A stretch of 7,909 nucleotides of DNA from a virus (Duplodnaviria > Heunggongvirae > Uroviricota > Caudoviricetes). Position numbers and translations under genes: made by a program. Positions 1 to 7,909 of the stretch are shown in pieces. Location: positions 1 through 7,909 of the IMG/VR virus record IMGVR_UViG_2778261498_000001; one strand, given 5' to 3'. The number at the start of each line of letters is the position of its first letter. The first letter of the stretch is position 1. The notes below the pieces were generated by a model. The model was not told the origin of the DNA. It ran no database searches and saw only the letters and a list, made by a program, of their open reading frames with translations.

Positions 1-2337
1 GGCGCGCCGTTCCGCTACAGCTTCAGCGCCCTGAAGGACCGCCATAATGCCGTTGAGGTGAACTGGATTGACCCGGACAACGGCTGGGAGACGGCGACAG
101 AGCTTGTGGAGGACACGCAGGCCATTGCCCGTTACGGTCGTAACGTCACGAAGATGGATGCCTTTGGCTGTACCAGTCGGGGGCAGGCACACCGCGCCGG
201 GCTGTGGCTGATTAAAACAGAACTGCTGGAAACGCAGACCGTGGATTTCAGCGTCGGCGCAGAAGGGCTTCGCCATGTACCGGGCGATGTTATTGAAATC
301 TGTGATGATGACTATGCCGGTATCAGCACCGGTGGTCGTGTGCTGGCGGTGAACAGCCAGACCCGGACGCTGACGCTCGACCGTGAAATCACGCTGCCAT
401 CCTCCGGTACCACGCTGATAAGCCTGGTTGACGGAAGTGGCAATCCGGTGAGTGTGGAGGTCCAGTCCGTCACCGACGGCGTGAAGGTGAAAGTGAGCCG
501 GGTTCCTGATGGCGTTGCCGAGTACAGCGTGTGGGGGCTGAAGCTGCCGACGCTGCGCCAGCGCCTGTTCCGCTGCGTGAGTATCCGTGAGAATGACGAC
601 GGCACGTATGCCATCACCGCTGTGCAGCATGTGCCGGAGAAAGAGGCCATCGTGGATAACGGGGCGCACTTTGACGGCGACCAGAGCGGCACGGTGAATG
701 GTGTCACGCCGCCAGCAGTGCAGCACCTGACCGCAGAAGTCACCGCAGACAGCGGGGAATACCAGGTGCTGGCGCGCTGGGATACGCCGAAGGTGGTGAA
801 GGGTGTGAGCTTTATGCTTCGCCTGACCGTGGCAGCGGATGACGGCAGTGAGCGGCTGGTCAGCACGGCCCGGACGACGGAAACCACATACCGATTCACG
901 CAACTGGCGCTGGGAAACTACAGGCTGACAGTCCGGGCGGTAAATGCGTGGGGGCAGCAGGGCGATCCGGCATCGGTATCGTTCCGGATTGCCGCACCTG
1001 CAGTGCCGTCGCGGATTGAGCTGACGCCGGGCTATTTTCAGATAACTGCCACGCCGCATCTTGCGGTTTATGATCCGACGGTACAGTTTGAGTTCTGGTT
1101 CTCGGAAACGCGGATTACCGATATCAGGCAGGTTGAAACCACAGCGCGCTATCTTGGCACGGCGCTGTACTGGATAGCTGCCAGTATCAATATCAGGCCG
1201 GGCCATGATTATTATTTTTACATCCGCAGTGTGAACACCGTTGGCAAATCGGCATTTGTGGAGGCTGTTGGCCAGCCGAGTGATGACGCATCCGGCTATC
1301 TGGATTTTTTCAAAGGAGAGATAGGGAAAACCCATCTGGCTCAGGAGTTGTGGACGCAGATTGATAACGGTCAGCTTGCGCCTGACCTGGCTGAAATCAG
1401 GACGTCCATTACGGGTGTCAGCAATGAAATCACGCAGACCGTCAATAAGAAACTGGAAGACCAGAGTGCAGCGATCCAGCAGATACAGAAGGTTCAGGTT
1501 GATACAAATAATAACCTGAACAGCATGTGGGCTGTGAAGCTGCAGCAGATGCAGGACGGACGCCTTTATATCGCGGGTATCGGTGCCGGTATTGAGAACA
1601 CCCCCGACGGTATGCAGAGTCAGGTGCTGCTGGCGGCAGACAGGATTGCGATGATTAATCCTGCGAATGGCAACACAAAGCCGATGTTTGTTGGTCAGGG
1701 CGATCAGATATTTATGAATGAAGTGTTCCTGAAATATCTGACGGCTCCCACCATTACCAGCGGCGGTAATCCTCCGGCATTTTCCCTGACACCGGACGGG
1801 CGGCTGACGGCAAAAAATGCCGATATCAGCGGTAACGTGAATGCGAACTCCGGGACGCTCAACAACGTCACGATTAACGAGAACTGCCGGGTTCTGGGAA
1901 AACTGTCCGCGAACCAGATTGAAGGTGATCTCGTTAAAACAGTGGGCAAAGCTTTCCCCCGTGACTCCCGTGCACCGGAACGGTGGCCATCAGGGACCAT
2001 TACCGTCAGGGTTTATGACGATCAGCCGTTTGACCGGCAAATTGTTATTCCGGCGGTGGCTTTCAGCGGTGCCAGACATGAACGGGAGAATAGCGATACT
2101 TATTCGTCATGCCGCCTGATAGTGAAGAAAAACGGGGCTGAAATTTATAACCGAACGGCTCTGGATAATACTCTGATTTACACGGGTGTTATTGATATGC
2201 CTGCAGGCAGTGGCGTAATGACACTGGAGTTTTCGGTATCAGCATGGTGGGTAAATGGCTGGTATCCCACAGCAAGTATCAGCGATTTGCTGGTTGTGGT
2301 GATGAAGAAAGCCACCGCAGGCATCAGTATCAGCTGA
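1..2337 (+). CDS. J: Host specificity (central tail fibre / tip) protein J, C-terminal ~779 codons; 5' end lies upstream of the window
   Basis: Frame 1 is open from base 1 to the TGA at 2335-2337, so the ATG at 58 is internal. The translation is long and non-repetitive and matches what I recall of lambda J, including its C-terminal receptor-recognition segment (…[13 protein letters not shown]). Immunoglobulin/fibronectin-like segments also appear, e.g. …[24 protein letters not shown]…. Confidence 0.9.
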
Positions 2338-2404: not shown

Positions 2405-3004
2405 ATGCGTAAATTATGTGCTGTTATTCTGTCCGCAGTAGTCTGGCTGGTTGCCGCTGGTACGCCAGCGAGCGCAGCAGAGCATCAGTCCACACTAAGC
2501 GCCGGGTATCTTCAGGCCCATACTGATATGCCAGGCAGTGATGACCTGAAGGGCATTAACGTGAAATACCGTTATGAATTTACGGACACGCTGGGGCTGG
2601 TGACGTCATTCAGTTATGCCAATGCCAAAGATGAGCAAAAAACGCATTACAGCGATACCCGCTGGCATGAAGATTCAGTGCGTAACCGCTGGTTCAGCAT
2701 GATGGCGGGGCCATCTGTACGCGTGAATGAATGGTTCAGTGCTTATGCGATGGCAGGTGTGGCTTACAGCCGTGTTTCGACGTTCTCCGGGGATTATCTC
2801 CGCGTAACTGACAACAAGGGGAAAACGCACGATGTGCTGACCGGAAGTGATGACGATCGCCACAGCAACACGTCTCTGGCGTGGGGAGCTGGCGTGCAGT
2901 TTAACCCGACCGAATCCGTGGCCATTGATATTGCTTATGAAGGCTCCGGCAGTGGCGACTGGCGCACTGACGGTTTCATCGTGGGTGTCGGTTATAAGTT
3001 CTGA
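2405..3004 (+). CDS. lom: Ail/Lom/PagC-family outer membrane beta-barrel protein (lambda Lom homologue)
   Basis: 199-aa ORF with an N-terminal signal peptide (MRKLCAVILSAVVWLVAAGTPASA/AE). Alternating hydrophobic beta-strand pattern and a C-terminal …GSGSGDWRTDGFIVGVGYKF ending in aromatic-X-Phe, as in lambda Lom. GAGAGG Shine-Dalgarno about 7 nt upstream of the ATG. Position between J and stf matches lambda. Confidence 0.9.
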   Translation: MRKLCAVILSAVVWLVAAGTPASAAEHQSTLSAGYLQAHTDMPGSDDLKGINVKYRYEFTDTLGLVTSFSYANAKDEQKTHYSDTRWHEDSVRNRWFSMMAGPSVRVNEWFSAYAMAGVAYSRVSTFSGDYLRVTDNKGKTHDVLTGSDDDRHSNTSLAWGAGVQFNPTESVAIDIAYEGSGSGDWRTDGFIVGVGYKF

Positions 3005-3031
3005 TTAGCCAGGTAACACAGTGTTATGACA

Positions 3032-3060
3032 GCCCGCCGGTTCAGGCGGGCTTTTTTGTG
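3032..3060 (+). terminator. Intrinsic terminator downstream of lom
   Basis: GCCCGCC (3032-3038), loop GGTTCA, GGCGGGC (3045-3051), then TTTTTTGTG. The T-run abuts the Shine-Dalgarno of the next gene. Confidence 0.65.
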
Positions 3061-3068
3061 GAGTGGAT

Positions 3069-5426
3069 ATGGCAGCAGTAAAAATCTCAGGTGTGCTGAA
3101 AGATGGTGCGGGAAAACCAATACAGAACTGCACTATTCAACTGAAGGCAAAGCGTAACAGCACCACGGTACTGGTGAACACGGTGGCCTCTGAAAATCCT
3201 GATGAAGCCGGGCGTTACAGTATGGACGTTGAGTATGGCCAGTACAGCGTCATCCTGCTGGTTGAAGGTTTTCCGCCTTCACATGCCGGGACCATTACCG
3301 TCTATGAAGGTTCCAGTCCGGGGACGCTGAATGATTTTCTCGGTGCCATGACGGAAGATGATGTCATGCCGGAGGCATTGCGTCGTTTTGAGGAAATGGT
3401 GGAAGAAGCGGCACGCAACGCCGAAGCCGCCTCTCAGAGCGCAGCGGCGGCAAAGAAATCCGAAACTGCAGCGGCATCATCGAAGAACGCGGCGAAAACC
3501 TCAGAAACGAATGCAGCTAACAGCGCACAGGCGGCAGCGACCTCACAGACTGCATCGGCAAACTCCGCGACAGCAGCCAAAAAATCAGAAACCAACGCGA
3601 AAAACAGCGAGACAGCCGCAAAGACGAGCGAAACCAACGCAAAGTCCAGCCAGACGGCAGCGAAGACCAGCGAAACGAATGCCAAAGCCAGTGAAACTGC
3701 GGCAAAAAACAGCCAGGTTGCAGCAGCCGAAAGCGAGAGCGCGGCAGCCGGTTCTGCGACTTCAGCAGCTGGATCAGCAACTGCTGCGGCTAACAGCCAG
3801 AAAGCTGCGAAGACGAGTGAAACTAACGCAAAGTCCAGCCAGACGGCAGCGAAGACCAGCGAAACGAATGCCAAAGCCAGCGAAACTGCGGCAAAAAACA
3901 GTCAGGATGCAGCGGCCCAAAGCGAGAGTGCCGCAGCTGGTTCTGCAAGTGCGGCAGCTAATAGCCAAAAAGCTGCAAAAACCAGTGAAACTAACGCAAA
4001 GACGAGTGAAACAAAAGCAGCAGCCAGCAAGACAGAAGCAACGTCAGCCGCAACAAGAGCAGAGAATGCAGCCCGGATTGCAGAAGATGCCGCTGATCCT
4101 GCTTCTGTCCCTCCGCTTCCTGATATCTGGCTACCCTTGAATGATTCTCTGGAAGCGATAACAGGGTATGCCCCGGGCTATAAAACAATAACCATCGGCA
4201 GTGATGAAATCACTGTACCTGTTAATGGCATATGCCAATTTAGCCGCGCTTCATCAGCAACTTATATTGATAAGTCCGGGCATATTACCGTAGCAGGTAA
4301 TAACGTTCCTCGTTTTGAAAAATATGGTTTGCTGATAGAGAATCAGCGAACAAACATGTTCGTAAATAGTTTTAATCCTGATGCGTGGAATAAAAGCGGT
4401 GGTATATCTGTAACATCATCAACAGATGAATTTGAGTTTAAATATGGACGTTTCACAGTAGGAAGTGAGATAGCAGGAACGACAACAGGGAGAAATATAT
4501 GCACAGTTGCTGGTAATAAAGGCATAGATGTGACTGGCGATGATCAATACAGTAAAGGTCCGTATGTTACCGCGTCGTTCAGGGTAAGAAGTGATCTCAA
4601 TGTTCGCGCACGTATCCGTTTTGAAGGGTATAACTCGGAAGGATACACTTTCCTTTGTGACGCCTATTTGTCATTACAGACTCATGAACTACAAATTACG
4701 GGTGGTAATGCCCAGCTATTAACAGCAAACTTTGAAATCGACCCTGGTAGTGGATGGATATATTTTCAGGCAACACTGAAATGTCTGCCAGAATGGGGAA
4801 TGGTTGGTACGCAGCTGCAAATTGCAGCCGACAGAGCAGTGGGGGCTTTTGCAACAGGTGACTGGATAGAAGTAACCACCCCGCAATTCGAGTATGGTGC
4901 CTGTGCAACTTCCTTTATCATAACGACAACAGAGCCAGCGACTCGTGCATCAGATTTATGTAAATTTCCGCTGATGAAAAATATGTATACCATGCCTTTT
5001 ACGTTCATGGTGGAAGTCCATAAAAACTGGTTTATTTCTCATAATGCTGCACCGCGAGTAATTGATACAGAAAACCATCAGTCAGGTGCTCCATTTATCA
5101 TGGGATTTGGCTCTTCTGGAACTATCAGTCAGGACGGTTATCCCTATTGTGATATAGGCGGGGCTAACCGACGTGTATATGAGTCATGCGGAGTAAGAGA
5201 TCTCGTTATGGGATTCAGGGTTAAGGCTGACGGCATGACATGCTCATTTGCAAATAAGCATATAAGCACAGAAACAAAAACAGTATGGAAATATATTCGT
5301 GAAGCTGCTGTGATTCGTATCGGGGGACAAACGACGACAGGATTACGACACCTTAATGGTCATATAAAAAACCTCCGTTTCTGGAACAGAGCATTGTCAG
5401 ATACGCAGCTTAAGGAATACGTATAA
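3069..5426 (+). CDS. stf: Mosaic side tail fibre protein: lambda Stf-like N-terminal domain, Ala/Ser/Thr-rich repeat shaft, and an unrelated lower-G+C C-terminal domain (possibly concanavalin-A/LamG-like)
   Basis: N-terminus MAAVKISGVLKDGAGKPIQNCTIQLKAKRNSTTVLVNTVASENPDEAGRYSMDVEYGQYSVILLVEGFPPSHAGTITVYEGS… matches my recollection of lambda Stf. GGAG lies 6 nt upstream of the ATG at 3069; the ORF track's GTG at 3063 is in frame but less likely. The C-terminal ~445 residues differ in composition and end in …LRHLNGHIKNLRFWNRALSDTQLKEYV, which resembles the terminal strand of LamG/ConA-like jelly-roll domains. The His-rich HxH motifs of the lambda Stf C-terminus are absent. Confidence 0.85.
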   Translation: MAAVKISGVLKDGAGKPIQNCTIQLKAKRNSTTVLVNTVASENPDEAGRYSMDVEYGQYSVILLVEGFPPSHAGTITVYEGSSPGTLNDFLGAMTEDDVMPEALRRFEEMVEEAARNAEAASQSAAAAKKSETAAASSKNAAKTSETNAANSAQAAATSQTASANSATAAKKSETNAKNSETAAKTSETNAKSSQTAAKTSETNAKASETAAKNSQVAAAESESAAAGSATSAAGSATAAANSQKAAKTSETNAKSSQTAAKTSETNAKASETAAKNSQDAAAQSESAAAGSASAAANSQKAAKTSETNAKTSETKAAASKTEATSAATRAENAARIAEDAADPASVPPLPDIWLPLNDSLEAITGYAPGYKTITIGSDEITVPVNGICQFSRASSATYIDKSGHITVAGNNVPRFEKYGLLIENQRTNMFVNSFNPDAWNKSGGISVTSSTDEFEFKYGRFTVGSEIAGTTTGRNICTVAGNKGIDVTGDDQYSKGPYVTASFRVRSDLNVRARIRFEGYNSEGYTFLCDAYLSLQTHELQITGGNAQLLTANFEIDPGSGWIYFQATLKCLPEWGMVGTQLQIAADRAVGAFATGDWIEVTTPQFEYGACATSFIITTTEPATRASDLCKFPLMKNMYTMPFTFMVEVHKNWFISHNAAPRVIDTENHQSGAPFIMGFGSSGTISQDGYPYCDIGGANRRVYESCGVRDLVMGFRVKADGMTCSFANKHISTETKTVWKYIREAAVIRIGGQTTTGLRHLNGHIKNLRFWNRALSDTQLKEYV
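3572..4010. repeat. Nested in-frame tandem repeats inside stf: 42-bp (14-aa) units inside a 189-bp (63-aa) higher-order repeat
   Basis: Peptide units AAK(T/K)SETNAK(S/A/N/T)S(Q/E)T recur many times. At DNA level, 3621-3651 (aagacgagcgaaaccaacgcaaagtccagcc) recurs at 3810-3840 (aagacgagtgaaactaacgcaaagtccagcc), an offset of exactly 189 bp, with near-identity continuing for over 120 bp. Confidence 0.8.
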
Positions 5427-5695
5427 TGCGGGATATAACATTACGATTCGATAACAGAGAACAGTTTAACGCAATTGTATATGACAGTGGCCTGTTCAGT
5501 CTTGAAGAAGAAAATGGGGTTCTTGTTGATGTTATTGGCTGCATTATTGATTACGAGGAGCCAGAAAACGAAAGATGTACAGGCATTGATCGCGGTGGTT
5601 TTTTCGTAAACATGAGGATTGTTGATGGCAGTAAAAACATATCTTCTTTAATGCCTTTCATTACGACAGATCAGCATGTAAGGACATGGGCTTAA
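5426..5695 (+). CDS. Hypothetical 89-aa acidic protein, translationally coupled to stf; function unknown (possibly fibre-associated chaperone or adaptor)
   Basis: The ATG overlaps the stf stop codon by one base (TAATG at 5424-5428). AAGGAA Shine-Dalgarno at 5412-5417, 8 nt upstream. Non-repetitive sequence with the same low G+C as its neighbours. The next gene starts 12 bp after its stop. I recognise no family. Confidence 0.55.
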   Translation: MRDITLRFDNREQFNAIVYDSGLFSLEEENGVLVDVIGCIIDYEEPENERCTGIDRGGFFVNMRIVDGSKNISSLMPFITTDQHVRTWA

Positions 5696-5707
5696 TGGAG
5701 TAAGACA

Positions 5708-6748
5708 ATGGTTACAAAAACAGTAATTCCTGATGACATCAAAACGCTAAAATCCGATGTTAGTAAACTACAAAACGATCAAGGAAGCTACGCAACAAAA
5801 TCATATGTAGACAGCAAAGATGAAACCGTTGGTGACTGGTCTGCTTCATGGTATCAGCAGGTATTGCCAACTAGCGGAGCTATATTTGGGCGAAAACTTC
5901 GCTCAACTCACAGGACGGCAGGTGTTGAGGATGCGTATTGCGAACTATACCTTAAAAAATGGATAGACAGTCCAGGGAACGCAATGGCGCGCCTTAACCT
6001 GAACGATAACGGTGAAAATATTTGCTGGGATTTTACCAACCTTTACGGCGGAACAATGATCTTCCCTGGTACTTCAGGTTATCTGAAAATGGGGAACTGT
6101 CTCATGTCGTATGGTGTGCGGGGAAGTAACGCGCTTATTAAGTTTGATAATACAGACACATTACAAATCAAATACGCTAATCATGGGTCAACCATGACAT
6201 TAAACACGCAAGGTACGGCGTATTCTGGTGTGTCGACGTTATTATGGGGAAATTCCAGTCGTCCAGTTGTTTATGAAATTAGGGATGATGGCGGGCTTTT
6301 TTTGTTTTATGCACAAAGGAACCCAGATAAAACCTATCAGCTTGAGATAAACGGGCCATGCAAGGCAACATCATTCGACCAGGTGTCGGACAGAGATCTT
6401 AAAGAAAACATTCAGGTTATTGATAATGCCACTGAGCGCATCAGATTAATGAATGGGTATACTTACCGTCTCAAGTCTAATGGTATGCCTTATGCTGGCG
6501 TTATTGCGCAAGAGGCACTTAATGCAATCCCTGAATCAGTTGGTAGCACAATAAAGTACAAGAGCGGGGACAATGGGTCTGATGGAGAAGAGGGAGAAAG
6601 ATACTATACCGTCGATTACTCAGGCGTAACGGGTTTGCTTGTTCAGGTAGCCAGAGAGTCAGACGACAGGATAACAGCACTGGAAGAAGAAAACGCAGAA
6701 TTAAGACAAAGATTATCTGCAATTGAGGCGGCGCTTGCGTCTAAATAA
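5708..6748 (+). CDS. Tail fibre / tail spike-like protein with a C-terminal intramolecular chaperone, autoproteolytic (peptidase S74-type) domain
   Basis: GGAG at 5697-5700, 7 nt upstream of the ATG. The C-terminal ~120 aa carry what I recognise as S74 hallmarks: …QV-SDRDLKENI… (Ser codon at 6386-6388; Ser/Lys dyad at the predicted self-cleavage site), …YAGVIAQEALNAIPE…, …YTVDYSGVTGLLVQVARE…, and a terminal heptad-like helix ITALEEENAELRQRLSAIEAALA. The N-terminal ~226 aa look like a short helical stretch followed by a beta-rich globular domain. Confidence 0.8.
   Translation: MVTKTVIPDDIKTLKSDVSKLQNDQGSYATKSYVDSKDETVGDWSASWYQQVLPTSGAIFGRKLRSTHRTAGVEDAYCELYLKKWIDSPGNAMARLNLNDNGENICWDFTNLYGGTMIFPGTSGYLKMGNCLMSYGVRGSNALIKFDNTDTLQIKYANHGSTMTLNTQGTAYSGVSTLLWGNSSRPVVYEIRDDGGLFLFYAQRNPDKTYQLEINGPCKATSFDQVSDRDLKENIQVIDNATERIRLMNGYTYRLKSNGMPYAGVIAQEALNAIPESVGSTIKYKSGDNGSDGEEGERYYTVDYSGVTGLLVQVARESDDRITALEEENAELRQRLSAIEAALASK
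6386..6745 (+). other. Predicted S74-type intramolecular chaperone domain, expected to be released by self-cleavage N-terminal to the Ser encoded at 6386-6388
   Basis: Motif SDRDLKENI plus the downstream conserved blocks described for the fibre-like CDS. Domain boundary is from motif position only. Confidence 0.65.
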
Positions 6749-6754
6749 TATTAA

Positions 6755-6778
6755 GGGGCCGAGCGCCCCGTTTTATTG
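6755..6778 (+). terminator. Possible weak intrinsic terminator between the fibre-like gene and the membrane-protein gene
   Basis: GGGGC (6755-6759), loop CGAGC, GCCCC (6765-6769), then GTTTTATT. The stem is short and the T-run is interrupted. Confidence 0.4.
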
Positions 6779-6790
6779 GGTAGGATGAAA

Positions 6791-7078
6791 ATGGATATAA
6801 CACCTTTCCTTCATGCGCTTTGTGCTGTGGCTGCGCAGCTACTGATTGGTCTTTTTACCGGGAACTGGGCTTACGGAGCGATAGCCGGTTGTACGTTCTT
6901 CATTGCGCGTGAACACACCCAGGCAGAATATCGCTGGATTGAAATGTTCGGGCATGGCAAGCGGATTAACATGCCGTGGTGGGGTGGTTTTGATCCACGT
7001 GCATGGGATGTGGCAAGCCTGATGGATTTTGCTGTGCCGGTGGTGGCGTGTCTGCTGATCTGGATGTTGATCCGTTAA
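6791..7078 (+). CDS. Small integral membrane protein (~95 aa, about three predicted transmembrane helices), unknown function; candidate prophage cargo gene
   Basis: Hydrophobic segments FLHALCAVAAQLLIGLFTG, WAYGAIAGCTFFIA and VASLMDFAVPVVACLLIWMLI. AGGA at 6782-6785, 5 nt upstream of the ATG at 6791; in-frame alternatives are ATG 6785 and the ORF track's TTG 6776. No lipobox. G+C is higher than the preceding two genes. It is the last gene before the att arm. Confidence 0.6.
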   Translation: MDITPFLHALCAVAAQLLIGLFTGNWAYGAIAGCTFFIAREHTQAEYRWIEMFGHGKRINMPWWGGFDPRAWDVASLMDFAVPVVACLLIWMLIR

Positions 7079-7095
7079 ATATAAAAAGTAAAAAG

Positions 7096-7127
7096 CCGCA
7101 GTAACTTGTCATGACAGGATACTGCGG
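7096..7127. other. 32-bp near-perfect palindrome 18 bp after the membrane-protein stop; terminator hairpin or protein-binding site
   Basis: CCGCAGTAACTTGTCA | TGACAGGATACTGCGG pairs at 15 of 16 positions (one A/A mismatch, one G-T wobble). Followed by TTGGCTGGTT, so no clean U-tract. Confidence 0.4.
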
Positions 7128-7341
7128 TTGGCTGGTTAACTTTCGATAGTGCGAGTATTGAATAATTTCCAGCCGTTACCGATTTTATATAACTGCAGTG
7201 GAATTATTCAACACACAGGCAAAACGGAATAAGCTGAGAAAAAAGCGTGCTTTCCCAATCTGGGGCAAATCACGTCTGAATGACACCTGAAAACAGGTGG
7301 TGGACTCAAGAAGGCTTGGAATATTCTTCTTTAATGTTATG

Positions 7342-7354
7342 TAATTCATTGATT
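7342..7354 (-). promoter_or_regulatory. IHF-consensus match in the presumptive attR P-arm
   Basis: TAATTCATTGATT fits YAANNNNTTGATW exactly (complement of WATCAANNNNTTR). It overlaps the first copy of the direct repeat TTGATTTTTCG (7349-7359). Confidence 0.4.
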
Positions 7355-7396
7355 TTTCGTGTACGATTTTAAGACATTTATTCCAAGAAAAATTTT

Positions 7397-7409
7397 TAAC
7401 TCTTTGATT
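7397..7409 (-). promoter_or_regulatory. Second IHF-consensus match in the presumptive attR P-arm
   Basis: TAACTCTTTGATT fits YAANNNNTTGATW exactly. It overlaps the second copy of TTGATTTTTCG (7404-7414), 55 bp from the first and about 20 bp from the tRNA-derived core. Confidence 0.4.
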
Positions 7410-7426
7410 TTTCGACTCTGTATCAT

Positions 7427-7488
7427 CGGTCTCGAAAACCGGAGTAGGGGCAACTCTACCGGGGGTTCAAATCCCCCTCTCTCCGCCA
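7427..7488 (+). tRNA. Partial tRNA-Ser(CGA) gene, 3' portion only (anticodon arm through CCA); presumptive att core / prophage-host junction
   Basis: CGGT-CTCGAAA-ACCGG (anticodon loop with CGA), long variable arm AGTAGGGGCAACTCTACC (class II tRNA), T-arm GGGGG-TTCAAAT-CCCCC, then acceptor 3' strand TCTCTCC-G-CCA. No complementary 5' acceptor strand (GGAGAGA) or D-arm exists upstream, so it is a fragment. It matches my recollection of the E. coli serU 3' half. Confidence 0.75.
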
Positions 7489-7770
7489 CTTTATCAATGA
7501 CTTATCTCCCGACTTCCCGCCTTGCTTTTCCTAAACAGAACAATCGTAGAATATTCTTGAAGGGTTAGATCGTCACTGTTTTCTGTTCGATACTGTGACA
7601 TTCAGCACTTGATTCGCTATGGATCTGACAGGAAGGTTTCGAGCGAAAATCTGCAATTATTCAGTCGTTTTCTTATCGGTCACCATTATTCTTTTAGACA
7701 TTGATCCTACAAAGCTGCCGCAAAGTTGGTGGTGGGAACTGAAGTTGCGTAGAGAAGGGGTCAATAATTG

Positions 7771-7809
7771 AGCAAAAAAAGGAACGCGGCCGTCAGATTA
7801 AAGCCGCGG
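7771..7809 (-). terminator. Possible intrinsic terminator on the minus strand in the flank
   Basis: On the minus strand: CGCGGC, a 12-nt loop, GCCGCG, then TTCCTTTTTTTGCTC. The stem is GC-rich with a strong T-run; the loop is long. Confidence 0.4.
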
Positions 7810-7909
7810 GACAAAGTCCATAATTTCCAAGAGTTGTTGAATTTCCCAGCTTTTTTGAAAGCCTTTGTATCATACTAACAAGTAAAAAAGGTTTAAATAC
7901 CAAAATTAA

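Follow-up and report, generated by a model that had tools for sequence, protein, structure and literature searches.

Horizontal transfer of tail fibres reportedly has a classic literature, to which Haggard-Ljungquist and Hendrix and Duda, both in 1992, are said to belong. In the lambda stf family the proximal part of the side tail fibre is conserved, the distal part is variable, and exchange goes via flanking homology; in lambda stf/tfa, Rac stfR and Qin the locus lies after J and lom, and the fibre begins with a PF08400 anchor. Lambda recombines homologously with the stf/tfa genes of the defective prophages Rac and Qin, which gives varied hybrids (De Paepe et al. 2014, PMC3945230). In the T5-like phages DT57C and DT571/2, two tandem genes, LtfA and LtfB, encode branched lateral tail fibres with a helical trimeric proximal part (PMC4728585, PMC10713586); in the second DT57C fibre the N-terminal peptide is conserved and an S74 chaperone domain is present. 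The host range of these two phages was switched experimentally by recombining a divergent distal segment of ltfA (PMC4728585). For the lateral fibres of T5-like and T1-like phages O-antigen binding has been proposed or shown, and conservation of their loci is limited to the far 5' end (Maffei et al. 2021, PMC8594841). The head spike fibre Rcc01080 of RcGTA (PDB 6TB9), which an alphaproteobacterial gene transfer agent bears on a capsid vertex (PMC7296036, PMC10218006), binds capsular polysaccharide (PMC10218006).

The stf gene described here belongs to an E. coli lambda-like prophage and lies in a window of 7,909 nt, the whole stretch of DNA that was analysed (Table 1). A comparison with the lambda family shows the same gene order, with stf directly after J and lom in a lambdoid tail operon, and the same 'prophage tail fibre N-terminal' anchor. 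The J part matches Ig_J, Ig_J_second, Phage_Tail_Tip and Ig_GpJ_C in Pfam and is labelled gpJ in RefSeq. In contrast to lambda, the lambda/T4 gp37-type tip with its Tfa (Caudo_TAP) chaperone is absent; the head is of a different family and is followed by a protein of ~90 aa (PHROG 1361) and a second fibre gene. The tandem arrangement of these fibre genes, in which the second has a conserved N-terminal docking peptide and an S74 domain, is of the DT57C LtfA/LtfB type, and the helical trimeric proximal part probably also has its counterpart here. DT57C-type fibres are branched, and the likeness of the prophage to them is one of gene layout. At the C-terminus DT57C LtfA has an S74 chaperone domain; Stf has a putative LamG-like motif there and a separate small gene downstream. 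We therefore rejected direct homology between LtfA and the head, and regard LtfA as an analogue in architecture only. The lateral fibre loci of the BASEL phages, namely T5-like (Markadamsvirinae), T1-like (Drexlerviridae), Dhillonvirus and Queuovirinae, have heads ~50% identical to this one from the PLPD motif to the C-terminus, the same order of fibre, small protein and second fibre, and the same confinement of conservation to the far 5' end. The fibre of IrisVonRoten has an Ala-rich shaft homologous to the shaft here. Unlike the prophage, the BASEL phages are virulent and use other N-terminal anchors, and the likeness is an ancient one (~50% at the amino acid level) without nucleotide-level identity. 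With Rcc01080 only one domain is held in common, distantly, the central head domain being like it via NF048003.

Table 1. Features of the stf locus, in nucleotide positions of the window.
Feature	Position	Strand	Remarks
J (tail tip protein), C-terminal part	58..2337	+	gene begins upstream of window
lom (Ail/Lom outer-membrane protein)	2405..3004	+	PF06316, E = 2e-127
stf, intact side tail fibre gene	3069..5426	+	785 aa from likely ATG 3069
N-terminal anchor (virion attachment)	3075..3464	+	PF08400 phage_tail_N, residues 5-134, E = 1.5e-66
Shared Ala-rich heptad-repeat shaft	3465..4016	+	left homology arm; 21-nt repeats
Left crossover interval of this allele	4003..4017	+	within last shaft heptads
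Allele-specific neck (KAAASKTEATSAATRAENAARIAEDAADPAS)	4018..4106	+	30 aa; last helical segment before head
Head, 439-aa globular distal domain	4107..5426	+	putative glycan-binding receptor-binding module
GTA head-spike-fibre-type jelly-roll domain, within head	4332..4949	+	NCBIfam NF048003
C-terminal ConA/LamG-like motif	5265..5411	+	PF13385 Laminin_G_3, E = 4.4e-4, below threshold
orf89, putative fibre assembly/accessory factor	5426..5695	+	start overlaps stf stop (ATGA); PHROG 1361
Right crossover interval	5696..5712	+	intergenic spacer and start of next gene
Second fibre gene, 346 aa	5708..6748	+	S74 intramolecular-chaperone domain PF13884 (C-terminal); PHROG 4563; right homology arm

The mechanical ORF of stf runs from a GTG start at 3063 to 5426, 787 codons without interruption, and its PHROG 1419 match spans the full length. 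The shaft, which is probably trimeric and alpha-helical, has a periodicity of 21 nt (one heptad) across 3555-4054 and contains a duplication of 189 nt (3564-3752 versus 3753-3941). Ala makes up 33% of its residues and A/S/T/K/E/N/Q together 97%, while the head has 7% Ala, and the transition to the head reads ...AENAARIAEDAADPAS|VPPLPDIWLPLNDSLEAITGYAPGYKTI, with V349 at nt 4107. A tRNA scan found no tRNA gene, and an Rfam scan gave just one tRNA-like fragment.

Alignment with stf homologues shows that the gene is a mosaic. Six related phages are 97-100% identical in nucleotide sequence up to nt 4003-4017, fall to ~50% until nt ~5700, and are back at 90-100% where the next gene starts. In sliding comparisons with 2G7b and PhiR46_1 the identity is 0.97-1.00 to ~3950-4016, 0.3-0.7 over 4017-5700 and 0.9-1.0 from 5710. 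On the left, the breakpoint by maximum chi-square comes after nt 4003 for 2G7b and after nt 4006 for PhiR46_1 (chi-square 475 and 617, permuted maximum ~20), base-level alignment loses identity past ~4016, and blastn alignments stop at 4012 for PhiR49_1 and at 4013 for PhiR63_1. On the right, identity to 2G7b and PhiR46_1 climbs at ~5708-5712 from 0.35-0.38 to 0.88-0.90 and reaches 0.93-1.00 by ~5800. Silent sites are discordant in the same way: against these two phages dS is 0.09-0.10 in the anchor and 0.14-0.16 in the shaft, which is 97-100% identical, and above 2.3 (saturated) in neck and head, with a neck pS of 0.72-0.82. Both breakpoints are thus abrupt and lie amid high-identity tracts, and the parts are found recombined elsewhere. 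The exchanged cassette, ~1.7 kb, comprises the 30-codon neck, the head, orf89 and the intergenic spacer. Even the shared arms differ by ~3% (dS ~0.1-0.16), so the exchange event is not recent.

An earlier note, made from the DNA letters, had placed an in-frame domain swap at 4060-4160 and supposed that the virion-attachment domain was kept. The swap is real and the attachment domain was indeed kept, since anchor and shaft have homologues at 97-100% nucleotide identity that collapse to ~50% distally. The position is not that of this allele, whose crossover lies 45-60 nt upstream of the proposed interval and 90-100 nt upstream of VPPLPD; 4060-4160 coincides instead with the junctions of other allele pairs (~4107-4160). 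The distal part was exchanged in frame as supposed, but the unit is larger than a domain and ends at ~5700-5710. Homologues with unbroken identity do exist, in PhiR47_1, PhiR11_1 and PhiR55_1 (Stf genes 97-98% identical in nucleotides) and in 130 genomes; they carry the same recombinant allele, so that they do not speak against the swap.

Of 5426 complete E. coli genomes, 1003 contain the anchor and shaft and 137 the head cassette; the two are joined in 130. The cassette is portable. In the siphophage contig L009 the head, neck and orf89, 95% identical in nucleotides over window positions 3566-5751, stand on another anchor (MWYREGTINL...), and the 2G7b-type head is found in a P2-like prophage with 92.6% nucleotide identity beginning exactly at the QPLPD codon. 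Across six lambdoid phages at least five head alleles are joined to one anchor, shaft and neck. That common neck (...ASEDAAREYASQAAEPYKYVLQ), present in six other lambdoid Stf proteins, differs from the neck of this allele, which among complete E. coli genomes is never seen apart from this head. Other combinations of the parts are those of L009, L010 and the six phages, and related heads are carried by P2-like, T5-like and T1-like fibres. Three low-coverage head matches in E. coli genomes (H148, H149, H150) were considered as recombinants with alternative anchors and rejected, being deletion or IS-disrupted remnants.

Taken together, stf is very probably a recombinant mosaic, in which a conserved anchor and shaft were joined by recombination to an exchanged neck-head-orf89 cassette with a probably glycan-binding head. 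We consider it real but ordinary, textbook tail-fibre mosaicism of a kind that is well documented and to be expected. Homologous or relaxed-homology recombination most likely put the cassette in place: the left arm would be the 21-nt shaft repeats, which preserve both reading frame and heptad phase, and the right arm the second fibre gene at its conserved 5' end. Site-specific recombination by a tail-fibre DNA invertase of the Gin/Cin/Pin type is a very unlikely maker of the exchange. This mechanism has been cited for the ancient spread of stf-like genes (PMC3945230), and a Pin-type serine recombinase is encoded somewhat further downstream in some relatives (L007, PhiR63_1), but there the gene lies past the second fibre gene and orf100. 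Fibre segments switched by Mu Gin, P1 Cin or e14 Pin have a serine invertase next to them and inverted crossover sites on either side; positions 3000-7909 contain neither an invertase ORF nor long inverted repeats, and both junctions lie inside long high-identity tracts, as expected of homologous recombination.

The fall in G+C, which the earlier note had seen at the same point as the swap, is significant and far beyond chance. The best single change-point, both in the gene and in the whole window, is nt 4179 (support interval of 2 log-likelihood units, 4111-4208), where G+C drops from 54.4% to 42.1% with a log-likelihood ratio of 17.7; 200 shuffles gave at most 7.6. Every codon position takes part (GC1.55 to.48, GC2.59 to.46, GC3.49 to.34), and the head has 42.8% G+C with a GC3 of 34%. 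Third positions by themselves step down sooner, after codon 290 (nt 3932, support 3857-3956), where GC3 goes from 0.53 to 0.33, a step matched in none of 500 permutations. The GCN codons of the Ala-rich shaft and neck hold the fall in total G+C back to the start of the head. 'The same point' is accurate to within ~100-250 nt, depending on the measure. All head alleles examined, in lambdoid and P2-like contexts, have 39-44% G+C beside 49-55% in the pre-head part; since low G+C is common to all of them, the step marks a module boundary and not this swap, and we rejected it as proof or date of this particular exchange.

These data also bear on whether there was any exchange at all. One could suppose a single, vertically inherited gene whose composition and character change simply where an Ala-rich (GCN) coiled coil passes into a globular domain. 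The Ala content of the shaft and its GC2 of 0.68 do inflate G+C, the change-point at 4179 tracks the structural boundary rather than the homology breakpoint, and low G+C is seen in every head allele. But GC3 falls as well, identity to six relatives collapses abruptly with saturated dS, and the head is found on other anchors. As a full explanation this reading is refuted, and we regard it as highly improbable; what is left of it is a partial account of the place of the total G+C step.

Divergence of the head in place, under diversifying selection and without recombination, is likewise most improbable. Positive selection is well known to act on receptor-binding domains, and the relatives differ in the distal part only. 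In the same pair, however, synonymous sites are saturated in the head (dS above 2.5) while dS is ~0.1 in anchor and shaft, and a head dN/dS of ~0.15-0.27 points to purifying selection. The change is abrupt on both sides and the divergence takes in another gene besides stf; among 5.8 billion sequences we found no protein 55-98% identical to the head, hence no intermediates; and the identical head stands on a different anchor. An artefact or decayed gene (assembly chimera or pseudogene), for which one could cite the truncated or IS-disrupted copies in several genomes and the RefSeq/PGAP record, where stf is broken into a partial pseudogene with an 'incomplete' N-terminus and a separate 429-aa CDS with the shaft unannotated, is refuted by an unbroken ORF that is 100% identical in the complete genome of strain G749, full length in 130 complete genomes and a single annotated CDS in four isolated phages.

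The head, an anciently diverged allele that is rarer than the anchor and shaft, is to judge from its sequence probably a sugar-binding tip. It falls in PHROG 1419/5939, opens with the family-wide motif PLPD(I/V)W(L/I)P.NDSL at 4113-4151, and shows ~50% amino acid identity to lateral tail fibres of T5-like, T1-like and Queuovirinae phages in alignments that start at the first head residue. The jelly-roll profile NF048003 scores 50 bits over Stf residues 424-629, against a cut-off of 36, and a sequence search of the PDB gave one weak match, 6TB9 (E = 0.0024). An AlphaFold2 model of the head, built on a 28-sequence alignment, is confident only at head residues 85-265 (~180 of 439; mean pLDDT 52.8) and has low confidence in the C-terminal third. 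With Foldseek the model has weak matches in the PDB to the Pa193/E217 tail fibres, carbohydrate-binding modules and lectins. These fold matches, though weak, point to a jelly roll like that of carbohydrate-binding modules and lectins in the central head domain. The Laminin_G_3 match at the C-terminus reaches 20.9 bits, against a gathering cut-off of 27.6, and covers only the last 48 profile positions.

The PF08400 anchor and shaft, common to many lambdoid phages, attach the fibre to the tail tip, and the head family circulates among lambdoid, P2-like, T5-like, T1-like and Queuovirinae phages. The head most likely binds a surface glycan, for example O-antigen, LPS core or capsule. Its exchange would change receptor specificity, as the earlier note had assumed, in the sense that primary adsorption is retargeted; J would still set the terminal receptor.

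In lambdoid, T5-like, T1-like and P2-like loci the head is followed by an ~90-aa homologue of the orf89 product. In L009 it is 98% identical, while the PhiR46_1 and 2G7b versions are only ~29% identical to it. The orf89 product has nothing significant in Pfam or NCBIfam and no Caudo_TAP match, and is a putative assembly or accessory factor of the fibre. PhiR46_1 and 2G7b share small proteins that are 95% identical, but their heads are only 44% identical, which makes a strictly cognate pairing of head and orf89 less likely. The N-terminus of the second fibre, MVTKTVIPDDIKTLK, is conserved in IrisVonRoten, swan01 and L010, and the peptide is kept in T5-like, T1-like and P2-like loci.

A bolder reading, which we hold only tentatively and think rather doubtful, is that the shaft repeats and the neck/PLPD...NDSL motif evolved as a universal adaptor for in-frame, heptad-in-phase exchange of three genes, that lambdoid E. 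coli prophages have branched side fibres of dual specificity, and that orf89 represents a new type of assembly factor, specific to the head. The three-gene module would consist of the glycan-binding head, a cognate ~90-aa protein and a second fibre docking by its N-terminal peptide, and would pass between temperate phages (siphophages and P2-like myophages) and the virulent T5-like and T1-like ones.

Returning to the mosaic itself, tail-fibre heads set which E. coli surface glycans a phage first grips, and frame-preserving crossovers are a natural recipe for retargeting lambdoid phages, the usable points being, on the left, the shaft heptads or the neck motif and, on the right, the beginning of the second fibre gene. 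Knowledge of such crossovers helps to predict prophage host range from sequence. Current RefSeq annotation breaks these genes at the low-complexity shaft, which would hide mosaics from protein-based surveys.

The window is 100% identical to NZ_CP014488.1 (E. coli strain G749) and represents the tail-fibre end of a lambdoid prophage of this strain. In the RefSeq annotation the host gene zinT lies ~1 kb beyond orf100. RefSeq/PGAP cuts the intact stf ORF in two (AVR74_RS30060 and AVR74_RS30055), giving a 'partial' N-terminal pseudogene at 3069-3435 and, from 4137 on, a second CDS of 429 aa, with the 700-nt repeat shaft left unannotated. This split is an annotation artefact, and it conceals the mosaic stf from protein-level surveys.

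Genes of the tail-fibre locus (window coordinates)
Feature	Position	Remarks
J, C-terminal part	58-2337	
lom	2405-3004	
stf	3069-5426	starts at ATG; intact ORF, 785 aa
orf89	5426-5695	small gene; start overlaps stf stop
Second fibre gene	5708-6748	with S74 chaperone domain
orf100	6776-7078	small membrane protein

The earlier note placed a recombination junction at 4060-4160 in stf and called for an alignment of homologues. The whole gene is found at ~97% identity in four isolated phages (PhiR47_1, PhiR11_1, its variant PhiR11_1_star, and PhiR55_1) and in 130 complete E. coli genomes. Identity runs unbroken through the junction in these carriers, which have the same allele and are therefore uninformative on it and no refutation. 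The informative comparators are phages with identity on one side of the junction only. Against 2G7b and PhiR46_1, related lambdoid phages with other heads, 60-nt windows show 0.97-1.00 nucleotide identity between 3000 and ~3950; past an indel of one heptad (21 nt) at 3954, identity holds to ~4016, falls to 0.3-0.7 until ~5700, and recovers to 0.9-1.0 once the second fibre gene's start codon is reached. By the maximum chi-square method, the left breakpoint follows nt 4003 for 2G7b and nt 4006 for PhiR46_1 (chi-square 475 and 617; permuted maximum ~20), and the alignments of PhiR49_1 and PhiR63_1 stop at 4012 and 4013. Thus, the loss of identity at 4003-4016 places the crossover of this allele in the last shaft heptads. 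This is 90-100 nt before VPPLPD and 45-60 nt before the interval first proposed, and the exchanged unit of ~1.7 kb takes in the neck (30 residues), the head (439 residues), orf89 and the spacer. The junction is well localised, within about 100 nt.

The proposed interval holds for the family. At least five head alleles, 42-65% mutually identical, are present in six lambdoid phages with a common anchor, shaft and neck (...ASEDAAREYASQAAEPYKYVLQ followed by PLPDVWIPFNDSLD), and these alleles have their junction at the neck/PLPD motif. Between PhiR46_1 and 2G7b, identity is lost at the equivalent of ~4160 and regained at the stf stop. Thus 4060-4160 is the usual junction zone of the family, while the window's allele carried its own neck along, crossing over slightly further upstream. 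PhiR46_1 and 2G7b have small proteins at 95% identity but heads at only 44%. Heads are thus also exchanged by themselves, and the pairing of small protein with head allele is not strict; orf89 is ~29% identical to both small proteins.

Anchor and head assort independently. Anchor plus shaft (3063-4016) is found in 1003 of 5426 complete genomes at ≥80% coverage, and the head cassette (4020-5695) in 137. In a siphophage contig (L009), the same set of head, neck and orf89 follows another N-terminal anchor (MWYREGTINL...), with 95% nucleotide identity over 3566-5751. The 2G7b head recurs at 92.6% nucleotide identity in a P2-like prophage contig, beginning exactly at the QPLPD codon. Divergence of the head in place is ruled out by the following contrast: against 2G7b or PhiR46_1, dS is 0.09-0.16 for anchor and shaft and saturated (>2.3) for neck and head, head dN/dS is low (~0.15-0.27), and no head relatives between 55% and 98% identity exist among 5.8 billion proteins. 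The heads are thus old alleles under purifying selection, joined by exchange. The in-frame domain swap suggested earlier is borne out by the identity collapse, the dS contrast and the occurrence of the head on other anchors.

In the P2-like contig (JAKWSV010000018.1, 1-3468), a P2 H-type tail fibre bearing the 2G7b-type head is followed by a small ORF, an uncalled 303-aa homologue of fibre 2 (2557-3468) and a Caudo_TAP gene. The module seems to have passed fairly recently between a lambdoid siphophage and a P2-like myophage. Decayed copies are also observed. One (P0001, a Logan contig, 585 aa) has major capsid protein E fused to the head at '...PVPDIWLPL'; another has an internal shaft deletion, and others have IS3 or IS21 insertions adjoining orf89.

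The Ala-rich repeat shaft gives way to different sequence as described from the DNA alone: 21-nt (seven-residue) periodicity extends over 3555-4054, the shaft contains a 189-nt duplication, and Ala content is 33% in the shaft versus 7% in the head. The translation reads ...AENAARIAEDAADPAS followed by VPPLPDIWLPLNDSLEAITGYAPGYKTI, with V349 at nt 4107. The best G+C change-point, for stf and the whole window alike, is nt 4179 (support 4111-4208; 54.4% to 42.1%) and is significant (log-likelihood ratio 17.7, shuffle maximum 7.6), with G+C lower afterwards at all codon positions. The third-position-only step is at nt 3932 (support 3857-3956; reached by 0 of 500 permutations). The total step comes later because Ala-rich GCN codons keep total G+C high until the head start. 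The drop noticed earlier is therefore real, but not a signature of this swap: every head allele has 39-44% G+C (GC3 0.28-0.37), and the pre-head part of lambdoid and P2-like fibres has 49-55%. What the step marks is the edge of a module family that has its own history of base composition. Head G+C in the T5-like phage IrisVonRoten matches the 40% genome, and low head G+C would fit a long stay in low-G+C virulent phages. The allele-specific neck is spanned by an imperfect hairpin at 4031-4109 (22-nt arms, 82% complementary), whose end coincides exactly with the first codon of the head; folded as RNA, it has a minimum free energy of -30.8 kcal/mol (z = -3.1; equalled by 2 of 200 shuffles), and it may be a chance feature.

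The head, from its first residue on, shares ~50% identity with the lateral tail fibres of T5-like, T1-like and Queuovirinae phages; its family also occurs on P2-type fibres. In the centre of the head there is a match to NCBIfam NF048003 (GTA head spike fibre domain; 50 bits, cut-off 36) and a weak one to PDB 6TB9. The centre is the sole part confidently modelled by AlphaFold, weakly resembling phage fibre tips and carbohydrate-binding jelly rolls; a Laminin_G_3 motif at the C-terminus is below threshold. The RcGTA head spike fibre binds capsular polysaccharide (PMC10218006). For lateral fibres of T5-like and related siphophages, O-antigen binding has been proposed or shown, and conservation of the loci is confined to the far 5' end (PMC8594841). 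The head most likely binds glycan, and the primary receptor would hence be changed.

Both cassette junctions border long high-identity tracts, and neither an invertase gene nor long inverted repeats are present in 3000-7909, which makes homologous or relaxed-homology recombination the likeliest route. Experiments have demonstrated such recombination between lambda stf/tfa and defective prophages (PMC3945230) and in ltfA of DT57C (PMC4728585). The 21-nt repeats offer many crossover points, in-frame and heptad-in-phase. Accordingly, the ends of nucleotide alignments to other phages and genomes are scattered over the shaft (350-362, 414, 476, 582-602, 633 and 897 of the gene). Mosaic stf is a textbook phenomenon for which ordinary modular exchange suffices, and the allele is already in databases (PHROG 1419, the four isolated phages). 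Its anchor and position make the gene a lambda-type Stf, whereas its distal part is not a lambda/T4 gp37-type tip with Tfa chaperone. The arrangement of fibre, small protein and second fibre is that of BASEL siphophages and is reminiscent of branched LtfA/LtfB fibres.

The second fibre gene is also mosaic. Against PhiR46_1 and 2G7b it is 90-100% identical over 5710-6040 and 6640-7030, and 57-78% over most of 6040-6640 (up to 0.90 at 6130-6219). Conservation of its N-terminal 17-37 residues (MVTKTVIPDDIKTLK...) across T5-like, T1-like and P2-like loci suggests a docking peptide. In J, several phages are 93% identical over 1-1354, unaligned over 1355-1523 and 73% identical over 1524-1958, and the patch 1355-1958 is a probable further mosaic segment in the tail tip protein. 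Directly after orf100, a 21-nt palindrome (7096-7127) may be a terminator or binding site. A tRNA-like fragment at 7434-7485, in low-G+C, ORF-poor DNA between orf100 and zinT, has sub-threshold Rfam matches, one of which covers 18 nt of the tmRNA 3' end; ARAGORN calls no tRNA there, and the fragment is probably an attachment-site remnant at the prophage end.
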